Of a stretch of DNA of 55,000 nt, positions 37,925 to 40,231 are shown piece after piece. The stretch comes from Escherichia coli. Lineage in GTDB: Bacteria > Pseudomonadota > Gammaproteobacteria > Enterobacterales > Enterobacteriaceae. Position 1 is the first letter of the stretch; each line of letters begins with the position of its first letter. The notes under the pieces were generated by a model. That model was given only the letters and a program-made list of their open reading frames with translations, searched no databases and was not told the DNA's origin. Where the stretch lies: NCBI RefSeq assembly GCF_003334355.1, contig NZ_QOWP01000026.1; one strand, written 5' to 3'. A program made the position numbers and the translations under genes.

Positions 37925-40231
37925 ATGTTTAAGGCCAGGATTTGCGGCTGGATAGGTTTACTTCCCCTGTTTATGCTGAGTCTTCCAGTACAGGCGGAAC
38001 TTCGATGTGTTGCAAATGCAGTTGATATTGAACAATTTTTTTCTGCGGCTACCGCTGAAGATAAACAACAAGTTGAACAAGCTATCAACAGTAGCGTGAA
38101 TCTTGTCCCCTTCGGTTTATCTGCATCGGACTGGAAAGTGCATCGTGGCGATTTAGTGGTAGAAGGTAATATAGAGAGTAATCAAAAATTGATTGTTCTT
38201 GGCAATTTGACAGTCAAAGGAAATATTTCCACTTTCTCTCTTTCTAATCCATGGGTTATTCTCGGTAACGTGACGGCAACGAATATAGTTACGGATTCAC
38301 CACTGTTAATTACCGGTTCGATAAATGCAAGTGGACTGGTATTTATCGACTCATATTACGATAATCCGTCTACGATTAAGGGGAGTATTAATGCGCGTGG
38401 GATATTTATCAATGACATAATTGCACCTGTTGTTGCGTCTTCGACAAATAGTGAATTCATGGTCCGTGCGAGTGACAAAAATGACACTGAAAATGTCAAA
38501 AAAGCGCTGATGATAATAAATCCTGATGCATATTATTGGGGTCTAATAAATGATGAAGATGCTCTGAAAGAAATTTTTAAGCGAAGCAATATTCGCATGG
38601 CAGGGAATGTCTGTAATCAGATGAAAAAAGAAGCGCTGTTTCGCCCTAAGCCTTCTCCTGAGTTAGTGCAGGAATTGCAAATGCTGGATGAAGGCAACGT
38701 TGCTGCATTTGAAGGACGAGATATTGCGACATTTGATCTTGCCATAATCCGAACTCTCCCAAGGCTTAAAGGAATTTCAGCTAACCTACGCAAACAACTT
38801 ATTAATAGCAATGATGAACAAACGATTGAAAGTATGGCGAGATATATGCCTGACAATGAGATTCTGGAGTTGACCGATCAGCAATTGGGTTACCAGCCTG
38901 TTGTTCTGGGGTTGCTCGACCGTGAACCGCTCTCTGTCGAAATAATGACGCGAATGAGTCGTCTACCTGATGGTGTCGGTCCGTTGAATCTTGCGCTACG
39001 TGAAAATCTCCCTCTGGATATCGTAATGACTCTGGCGAAAAGAGATTGGGATATGATCATTCAGGAGCTTTATAAAGATGCGTGGTTATTGCCTGAATCC
39101 ATTATTGATGGCTATATCCGCAGTGATGATTCCTCTATTCGTCAGGTCGGTGCTGGAGGACAACTCACCTACAATCAGGCAATGCAGTTGGCGAACGATT
39201 CATCAAACAATGTTGTCACAAGCTTAGCGTTCAAGCTGGCAGAGATGAAACACCATGGTCAATTATTGCGGATGACGCCACAAGAGAGTGACAAAGTTGC
39301 AGCCTATTTATACCAAAAATTCGAGAATGACGATGATCTAATACGTGTGTTATTTTTAGCATTGCCAGATAACTTACAGTTTAATTTTGTTAAAAGGATG
39401 GAGAAAAAATCCCCTGCCTACTTTTGCTGTCGGGATATGCAGGTAATTCACTCTGACGCTGCTCTACAACGGTTATTGACACGTTTCAACGATCCTGAGG
39501 GGTGGAGTAATCTGGCGAAAAATCAGTATCTGAGCACGTCGATGAAACAAAAAATTTGGCAACGTGCTTTATCGCATCGGAAAAATAATCCGAAAGCAGA
39601 TTCAGCTGCGTATGAAACCAGCGCTGATATGATTTTGTCTGAGCTTATCAGCCACGGTGAAGTTGATGATCAGATGCTATTAAATGCCACAGCCCTGATA
39701 CGTTTGGAAGACTGGGACTTTTTAGAGAGTGCATTAGTTAGTTGGGATAATTTACCCGCTGTTGTCCTCAAGGAATTACAGCAAAATACGCCACGCAATG
39801 ATATTTGGGCGAAGTTTTTTCTGAGGCAGGAAAACAGCTCCCGTGCGCAGGTTGATGAAGCATTACGCGTCTATTATGCACTCGACCCCGATGCGTTAGC
39901 ACAACTGGATGTACTGGCAAAACAACCGGATCGTATATGGTGGAGTACACTGGCGAAAAGCAATCTCACATTTTTCAAGTTCGGCGCACTTAACAACCGC
40001 CACACACCGCCTGCAGTACTGGCAGCAGAAATTGATCCCGAGTGGTGGATTGTGGCGATGAATAATCCCCGTTTTCCAGTTGATGTATTAAAGGCGAGGC
40101 TGAAACGTGATCCTTTGCTGGCGTTAGAGCTTGTTAACCCTGAACTGGATTTAGTCCGCCAGCTGGCGCTTAACGGTAAGACGCGCGCAATACGGGAACA
40201 AGCGATGAGAAAACTTGATGAGTTGTATTGA
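37925..40231 (+). CDS. ydbD: Uncharacterised secreted protein YdbD with an N-terminal beta-solenoid-like repeat region
   Basis: Track ORF trimmed to MFKARICGWIGLLPLFMLSLPVQA (signal peptide), 768 aa. Four ~20-residue repeats are visible (LGNLTVKGNISTF / LGNVTATNIVTDS / TGSINASGLVFID / KGSINARGIFIND). Visibly lower GC than the flanking genes. Confidence 0.8.
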   Translation: MFKARICGWIGLLPLFMLSLPVQAELRCVANAVDIEQFFSAATAEDKQQVEQAINSSVNLVPFGLSASDWKVHRGDLVVEGNIESNQKLIVLGNLTVKGNISTFSLSNPWVILGNVTATNIVTDSPLLITGSINASGLVFIDSYYDNPSTIKGSINARGIFINDIIAPVVASSTNSEFMVRASDKNDTENVKKALMIINPDAYYWGLINDEDALKEIFKRSNIRMAGNVCNQMKKEALFRPKPSPELVQELQMLDEGNVAAFEGRDIATFDLAIIRTLPRLKGISANLRKQLINSNDEQTIESMARYMPDNEILELTDQQLGYQPVVLGLLDREPLSVEIMTRMSRLPDGVGPLNLALRENLPLDIVMTLAKRDWDMIIQELYKDAWLLPESIIDGYIRSDDSSIRQVGAGGQLTYNQAMQLANDSSNNVVTSLAFKLAEMKHHGQLLRMTPQESDKVAAYLYQKFENDDDLIRVLFLALPDNLQFNFVKRMEKKSPAYFCCRDMQVIHSDAALQRLLTRFNDPEGWSNLAKNQYLSTSMKQKIWQRALSHRKNNPKADSAAYETSADMILSELISHGEVDDQMLLNATALIRLEDWDFLESALVSWDNLPAVVLKELQQNTPRNDIWAKFFLRQENSSRAQVDEALRVYYALDPDALAQLDVLAKQPDRIWWSTLAKSNLTFFKFGALNNRHTPPAVLAAEIDPEWWIVAMNNPRFPVDVLKARLKRDPLLALELVNPELDLVRQLALNGKTRAIREQAMRKLDELY

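Follow-up and report, generated by a model that had tools for sequence, protein, structure and literature searches.

A 55,000-nucleotide stretch of the Escherichia coli chromosome (contig NZ_QOWP01000026.1, assembly GCF_003334355.1; hereafter the window) carries the gene ydbD within the order ydbA, pdxI (ydbC), ydbD, ynbA, ynbB, ynbC, ynbD, azoR (on the opposite strand) and hrpA. The product is 100% identical to annotated ydbD of RefSeq E. coli genomes and has the same 768-residue length, which settles the gene identity proposed in an earlier note on this DNA. YdbD is among the remaining large E. coli proteins that have no assigned function. Sequence statistics and a high-confidence structure prediction give its anatomy: a predicted Sec-type signal peptide, a short right-handed β-solenoid with ordered flanks, and a long α-solenoid that runs to the C-terminus (Table 1).

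Table 1. Positions in the window of ydbD, the predicted parts of its product and the adjacent upstream signals.
Feature	Residues	Position	Strand	Detail and basis
pdxI intrinsic terminator		37869..37908	+	12-bp stem plus T-run; terminator scan and sequence
Shine–Dalgarno GGAG		37916..37919	+	5 nt ahead of the ATG; sequence read directly
ydbD coding sequence	1–768	37925..40231	+	768 amino acids plus stop; open reading frame listing and translation
Predicted Sec-type signal peptide	1–24	37925..37996	+	Cleavage predicted after VQA; sequence features and hydropathy
N-terminal flank of the solenoid	25–69	37997..38131	+	Conserved helix 44–53 (AlphaFold2); segment aligns family-wide
Predicted right-handed β-solenoid	70–181	38132..38467	+	Five full rungs and a partial sixth; AlphaFold2
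Helical linker	182–245	38468..38659	+	Ends in conserved L-F-R motif (F239, R240)
Predicted α-solenoid of LRV/HEAT-type repeats	246–768	38660..40228	+	AlphaFold2, Foldseek and Pfam matches of homologues
Pfam DUF2773 (PF10971)	688–768	39986..40228	+	E 2.3e-45, model positions 1–81 of 81

The N-terminus of YdbD reads MFKARICGWIGLLPLFMLSLPVQA followed by E, with recognisable n-, h- and c-regions; the likely cleavage site follows V-Q-A, and there is no lipobox. It divides into MFKAR, ICGWIGLLPLFMLSL and PVQA ahead of the E, and the 10-residue hydropathy maximum is 2.16. The call, made by eye and with a hydropathy scan, is heuristic; the n/h/c-regions and the A-x-A-type site agree with the signal peptide that the earlier note had assigned. 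Most full-length homologues carry a comparable N-terminal hydrophobic segment, and in an apparent exception, homologue P0039, a signal peptide appears once the start is moved upstream. On these sequence features, YdbD is predicted to be exported to the periplasm.

The repeat signal in the N-terminal third is well above chance. Six copies of the motif [LIVF]-x-G-[NS]-[LIV] are present, at residues 79, 91, 97, 112, 129 and 151, and none elsewhere in YdbD, compared with a mean of 0.25–0.29 copies and a maximum of 3 in shuffled sequences. The best off-diagonal self-alignment of residues 71–172 scores 95, against 25.5 ± 5.1 (maximum 46) over 300 shuffles. Four imperfect repeats of about 20 residues had been reported at 38190–38420; they are present there, correspond to residues 89–166, and make up rungs 2–5 of a longer solenoid. 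The repeat length is correct, as the rung glycines G75, G93, G114, G131 and G153 are spaced by 18, 21, 17 and 22 residues.

A full-length AlphaFold2 model, computed from YdbD aligned with 39 homologues, mostly distant, has a mean predicted local distance difference test (pLDDT) score of 87.9 and a predicted template modelling score (pTM) of 0.76. Residues 70–181 are modelled as short strands in triplets, about six rungs in all, and the repeats are thus predicted to fold as a right-handed β-solenoid that extends beyond the interval first noted on both sides. A separate model of the N-domain (residues 55–192), built from 70 module sequences, reached a pLDDT of 87.6, and residues 31–50 of the N-terminal flank have pLDDT values of 91–93 in the AlphaFold2 prediction. 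In a 40-sequence alignment, the linker residue R240 is nearly invariant; the nearly invariant positions of the solenoid are turn glycines and core hydrophobic residues, namely G75, G93, L95, G99, V112 and G114. Independent evidence for the structural equivalence of the rungs comes from a natural 711-residue E. coli variant (protein P0013, found on 88 contigs), which lacks residues 101–155 (window 38225–38389). Exactly three rungs are missing from it, in register, such that 'KGN' of rung 2 is joined to 'NARG' of rung 5.

Beyond the repeats, the earlier note had described a large helical-looking domain, and AlphaFold2 makes residues 188–768 all-helical, with an α-solenoid of roughly 520 residues. 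Foldseek searches with the helical part returned HEAT/ARM solenoids from the PDB and LRV/HEAT-annotated proteins from the AFDB. Among 40 homologues searched against Pfam at E≤1e-3, six match LRV, six LRV_2, one HEAT_2 and one DUF2336, and the consensus of the family alignment has the LRV-like pattern 'LA.NP..P...L..LA.D....VR'. E. coli YdbD itself has no match to the Pfam hidden Markov models (HMMs) LRV, LRV_2 and HEAT_2; its helical part is probably a solenoid of the LRV/HEAT type whose E. coli version has diverged. In the model, DUF2773 is not an independent domain and covers only the C-terminal end, the last 81 residues, of this continuous α-solenoid. Many E. coli genomes also have 3′ remnants, derived from ydbD or from its paralogue, that bear the DUF2773 label.

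HMM searches against Pfam-A, NCBIfam, PHROGs and PADLOC assigned no well-characterised domain to YdbD, returning DUF2773 and a sub-threshold match to Bactofilin, and in this respect the earlier note anticipated the result. Its likening of the repeats to bactofilin or β-helix rungs held for the fold class, with about six rungs, but not for the family, as the Pfam match lies below significance. Pfam Bactofilin (PF04519) matches the full protein with E 0.048 (14.3 bits) and the isolated domain with E 0.0051 (17.5 bits); among 70 module homologues, none matches it at E≤1e-3 and five do at E≤0.1. The family profile compared with PDB sequences gave E 0.71 for BacA (2n3d_A) and E 1.6 for 6ria_A, and PDB sequence and profile searches with YdbD found nothing significant. 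Other weak matches, all sub-threshold, were to NCBIfam MinC (E 0.014, the sole NCBIfam match), Pfam FapA and MinC_C, and PDB entries 4v02_C and 5xdm_A.

In structural comparison, the tightest, near-complete fits to the YdbD solenoid are two bactofilin structures. The bactofilin hallmark of a right-handed β-helix with about six windings of roughly 18 residues is present in YdbD, whereas a cytoplasmic location with short disordered tails is not: YdbD has a predicted Sec signal peptide, flanks predicted to be ordered (pLDDT 77–93) and a helical domain of 520 residues. Judged by sequence, the solenoid is bactofilin-like in fold and is not a demonstrable member of the bactofilin family. The resemblance is already known, as the RefSeq product name is 'DUF2773 domain-containing bactofilin'. 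The RefSeq name of the 711-residue variant omits 'bactofilin'.

A word-indexed homologue search with full-length YdbD returned Escherichia sequences only. HMMER, run exhaustively against 1.84 billion representatives, identified 166 proteins at E≤1e-3; about 35 are full-length homologues of 735–820 residues with 21–31% identity, from hosts that include Tahibacter, Pseudomonas and Halopseudomonas. Many proteins of 200–500 residues have only the N-terminal module in common with YdbD (about residues 38–245), and some of these short proteins stop exactly at a conserved G-x-x-[IL]-[FY]-[RK] motif. In other proteins, the module is followed by LRR, DUF285, ankyrin or LRV arrays. Stand-alone copies of ~208 residues that have no signal peptide occur in Streptomyces and Kitasatospora, the Streptomyces versions ending in G-K-P-L-F-R. 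Three such proteins from Streptomyces, Kitasatospora and Embleya (P0205, P0208 and P0222) are about 160–217 residues long, carry no Pfam annotation and end in G-x-P-L-F-[RK].

These stand-alone actinobacterial copies show that the module is not confined to exported proteins or to Proteobacteria. As it occurs both alone and fused to varied repeat arrays, it behaves as an autonomous conserved unit that has no Pfam family. A far-reaching and improbable extension would make the ~210-residue unit of helix, six-rung solenoid and L-F-R linker an autonomous domain family, hitherto undescribed and separate from the bactofilins. The unit would be cytoplasmic and alone in Actinobacteria, exported and fused to interchangeable scaffolds in Proteobacteria, and would serve for self-association or anchoring. 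YdbD-family proteins, recurrently duplicated and lost, would then form a novel envelope class, of 'periskeletal' or targeting proteins.

Of 5426 complete E. coli genomes, 3991 contain the ydbD coding sequence (3834 at ≥80% coverage) and 26% lack it. Relative to E. whittamii, the ratio of nonsynonymous to synonymous substitution rates (dN/dS) is 0.16 overall; the helical part has 0.14 and the solenoid 0.056. The overall value indicates a functional gene under purifying selection, with the solenoid as its most constrained part.

A second YdbD-family paralogue, 28% identical, was located through protein clusters. It lies between ppnP/yaiE and rdgC in E. coli GCA_900449805 (locus L036, 6626–8906), where it is split into open reading frames of 436 and 301 residues. 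A 2.8-kb query that comprised this paralogue and the adjacent SF0329 gene was found at ≥80% in 444 of the 5426 genomes; nearly all other E. coli genomes have a 3′ remnant of the paralogue alone, annotated as 'DUF2773 domain-containing protein' or YkiD. Homologue genes from loci L002, L003 and L035 had no matches when searched in E. coli genomes. On a metagenome contig (L032, 3518–14397), at least five YdbD-family paralogues of about 760–800 residues stand in tandem, with 24–52% mutual identity and mostly with signal peptides.

Translation of ydbD is assigned to the ATG at 37925 in preference to a GTG at 37919 because of the position of the GGAG, and the RefSeq start agrees. Only 17 nt separate the end of the pdxI terminator from this start. 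As this leaves no space for a promoter, ydbD must presumably be transcribed from inside pdxI or by terminator read-through, which could explain its very low expression. A sigma-70 scan found no site upstream of ydbD, and overall fewer sites than in shuffled sequence. The only σE-like candidate upstream of the gene consists of a weak −35 element (GCAACTT, 37810–37816) and, 15 nt later, TCTAC as a poor −10.

The guanine-plus-cytosine (GC) content is 43.2% for ydbD, 45.7% for ynbA, 43.3% for ynbB, 50.9% for ynbC, 50.2% for ynbD and 49.9% for the window. The lower GC content said to be shared by ydbD and the ynb operon therefore applies to ynbA and ynbB, but not to ynbC or ynbD. The products of ynbABCD are a CDP-alcohol phosphatidyltransferase, the CdsA paralogue YnbB, a hydrolase/methyltransferase and a PAP2 phosphatase. 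In the window, the longest ynbD reading frame begins with a GTG at 43591 and shares 86 nt with the end of ynbC (43591–43676), and the true start is probably further downstream.

The earlier note had also implied a link between ydbD and ynbABCD, to be checked by their conservation together across genera. Gene neighbourhoods were compared at 26 loci found with YnbC as probe, one genome per species, with tblastn searches for the ynb genes and ydbD. The genes ynbA, ynbB, ynbC and ynbD are kept in Citrobacter, Phytobacter, Hafnia, Serratia, Superficieibacter, Mixta, Buttiauxella, Orbaceae and others. In contrast, ydbD is present at just two of the 26 loci, both from Escherichia, and was not found by tblastn at any of the 24 non-Escherichia loci within flanks that, from locus to locus, cover about 2.5–9.9 kb upstream of ynbA. 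None of six distant ydbD homologues, all in unrelated neighbourhoods, has ynb-type genes beside it. By this criterion the implied link is not supported, and the association of ydbD with ynb is specific to the Escherichia lineage.

In Citrobacter (locus L006, 4597–7755), ydbH (879 residues) and ydbL directly precede ynbA, where E. coli has a block that ends in ydbA-pdxI-ydbD (about 33800–40400). This difference implies that ydbD arrived, or was retained, with a segment separate from the ynb operon. The Citrobacter locus (9367–10008) and most other non-Escherichia ynb loci contain an extra reading frame of 213 residues between ynbB and ynbC, which, with its NHNSHMD motif, looks like a PlsC-type acyltransferase. 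In the window, the gap between ynbB and ynbC is just 15 nt (41903–41919), so the PlsC-like gene is missing there. In E. coli UMNK88 (locus L001, 10603–12267), a deletion fuses the 5′ end of ynbA to ynbC with loss of ynbB, and both are annotated as pseudogene fragments.

A literature search found no mechanistic study of YdbD. The statement in the earlier note that no function has experimental support is close to accurate, but scattered expression, screen and fitness data exist. Expression of ydbD rose 3.9-fold on overproduction of σE, and the gene is listed as 'induced by methylglyoxal' (PMC2731931). A transposon-fitness effect of ydbD was recorded in minimal glucose, and the abundance of YdbD is reported as <1 part per million (ppm), roughly 6 copies per cell (bioRxiv 038851). 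Furthermore, ydbD is a YciT target by chromatin immunoprecipitation–exonuclease (ChIP-exo) and acquired incidental mutations in evolution experiments.

On balance, YdbD is probably an exported, non-catalytic binding or scaffold protein of the envelope, which combines a β-solenoid module with an α-solenoid and is neither a canonical polymer-forming bactofilin nor a dedicated component of ynbABCD. It is proposed that a Sec signal peptide cleavable after residue 24 would direct to the envelope a protein with no recognisable catalytic domain. In the predicted structure, its constant ~210-residue module (roughly residues 38–245) comprises an N-terminal helix, the short right-handed solenoid core and the linker that ends in L-F-R. 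To judge from this architecture, YdbD may work by binding rather than catalysis, with the α-solenoid supplying a surface that recognises a periplasmic partner; its action would take place in the envelope, possibly under σE-type stress.

Several points weigh against this proposal. The functional role is deduced from the architecture, export from sequence features, and capping of the solenoid ends from the predicted order of the flanks (pLDDT 77–93). For a scaffold, roughly 6 copies per cell would be few. The PDB matches to the α-solenoid are generic, with E about 1e-4 and template modelling (TM) scores of 0.1–0.3. Moreover, E. coli YdbD deviates from the family consensus, in that the polar motifs YDDY, SWG and YNDFTFEV are not kept, and it may thus have drifted from an ancestral activity.

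Five rival explanations were considered, and each is less likely than a non-catalytic binding or scaffold role. That YdbD is a true bactofilin, whose solenoid polymerises end to end into a periplasmic filament, is implied by the RefSeq name; a Tahibacter homologue is likewise named 'polymer-forming cytoskeletal protein', and weak sequence matches to Bactofilin, MinC_C and FapA recur. Such a filament is quite unlikely, given the Pfam E-values above, the absence of family matches at E≤1e-3 among the 70 homologues and an abundance of <1 ppm. Characterised bactofilins are cytoplasmic with short, disordered tails, whereas YdbD has a signal peptide, and its predicted ordered flanks lead into the 520-residue domain. 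Somewhat less improbable, though still unlikely, is that the β-solenoid is an adhesin-type module for glycans or surfaces, through which YdbD would bind peptidoglycan, enterobacterial common antigen or colanic acid. Some homologues do match pAdhesive_15 weakly (one of 70 at E≤1e-3), but these matches reflect the generic right-handed β-helix fold, at 7–15% identity. The YdbD solenoid is also short, no carbohydrate-binding residues were identified in it, and stand-alone cytoplasmic versions of the module exist in Actinobacteria.

A role as functional partner of ynbABCD, for instance by helping, in the periplasm, to make or handle a glycolipid such as MPIase, would fit the local arrangement: ynbA follows ydbD on the same strand after 170 bp, an interval in which no terminator is predicted, and low GC content is common to ydbD, ynbA and ynbB. 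YnbB has been implicated in MPIase biosynthesis (PMC6362211), and for YdbD as for YnbB, very weak expression was noted together with importance for fitness in minimal glucose (bioRxiv 038851). However, insertions with polar effects could account for the common fitness signal, and ydbD is intact in UMNK88 while ynbA–ynbC are deleted or fused. With ydbD lacking from the examined flanks of all 24 non-Escherichia loci, ydbH and ydbL in its place in Citrobacter, and no ynb-type neighbours beside the six distant homologues, such a partnership appears decidedly doubtful. A role for the family in conflict or defence, with its members serving perhaps as periplasmic immunity or decoy factors, is less plausible still, although it would account for its patchy, fast-decaying and tandemly duplicated distribution. 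In its favour are the absence of ydbD from a quarter of complete E. coli genomes (26%, as above), the reduction of the ppnP–rdgC paralogue to a remnant in about 92% of genomes, the diverged tandem paralogues on one metagenome contig and the low GC content of ydbD. Against it, PADLOC and PHROGs gave 0 families at E≤0.1, the six homologue neighbourhoods examined contain no toxin or secretion-system genes, the dN/dS of 0.16 is purifying and not diversifying, and ~770 residues would be unusually large for an immunity protein. Least credible of all is direct detoxification of methylglyoxal, for which protein databases supply the name 'protein involved in detoxification of methylglyoxal'. Susceptibility to methylglyoxal was reportedly screened in 2007 by Kim et al. 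(PMID 17846588, as cited in PMC13313352). Besides this and the listed induction by methylglyoxal, the Tahibacter amnicola homologue has two opposite-strand neighbours, a Glyoxalase-family (VOC) gene and an AraC/GyrI-like regulator (locus L031, 8410–8943); a single coincidence of this kind is weak and no evidence by itself, because VOC/glyoxalase-fold genes are very common. Pfam and NCBIfam detected no catalytic domain in YdbD, including glyoxalases I, II and III and aldo-keto reductases, and no conserved catalytic constellation was seen. The known glyoxalase routes are cytoplasmic and glutathione-dependent, whereas YdbD is predicted to be periplasmic.

The name 'bactofilin' implies a cytoskeletal polymer, which is a poor fit to a predicted-exported, very scarce protein that fails the family HMM, and the distinction guards against over-reading of the annotation. 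The present analysis adds that the bactofilin label is unsupported at the family level, that the module is a separate unit, that DUF2773 is the tail of the α-solenoid, and that the ynb association is specific to Escherichia. Dropping the assumed tie to ynb matters for work on YnbB and MPIase and for transposon-fitness readings of the region. If the module did polymerise in the periplasm, it would constitute a new kind of extracytoplasmic scaffold, which the present evidence makes unlikely.

Among known systems, the bactofilins Caulobacter crescentus BacA (2N3D) and that of Thermus thermophilus (6RIA) differ from YdbD in the signal peptide, the ordered solenoid flanks and the α-solenoid of YdbD, and polymerisation of the bactofilin type is unlikely at so few copies per cell. 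The C-terminal domain of MinC (PF03775) and FapA (PF03961) are small right-handed β-solenoids like that of YdbD, to which they show weak, recurrent matches; both are cytoplasmic, act in cell division and flagellar assembly, and have no context in common with YdbD. Large right-handed β-helix adhesins and carbohydrate-active proteins, such as tapirin (6N2B), the FHA and HxuA TPS domains (1RWR and 4I84) and a pectinase-like protein (3LYC), are alike at the level of the fold only, with 7–15% identity. Their helices are far bigger, have long loops and present defined faces for binding or catalysis. For the helical part, the closest parallels are LRV/HEAT α-solenoids (PF01816, PF25591 and PF13646), including the PP2A A subunit and karyopherin-β2. 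The E. coli protein is too diverged for their HMMs and superposes poorly on them as a whole (TM 0.1–0.3), and the characterised examples are cytoplasmic or eukaryotic, unlike the predicted-exported YdbD; like them, however, YdbD is modelled as a continuous array of helix pairs.

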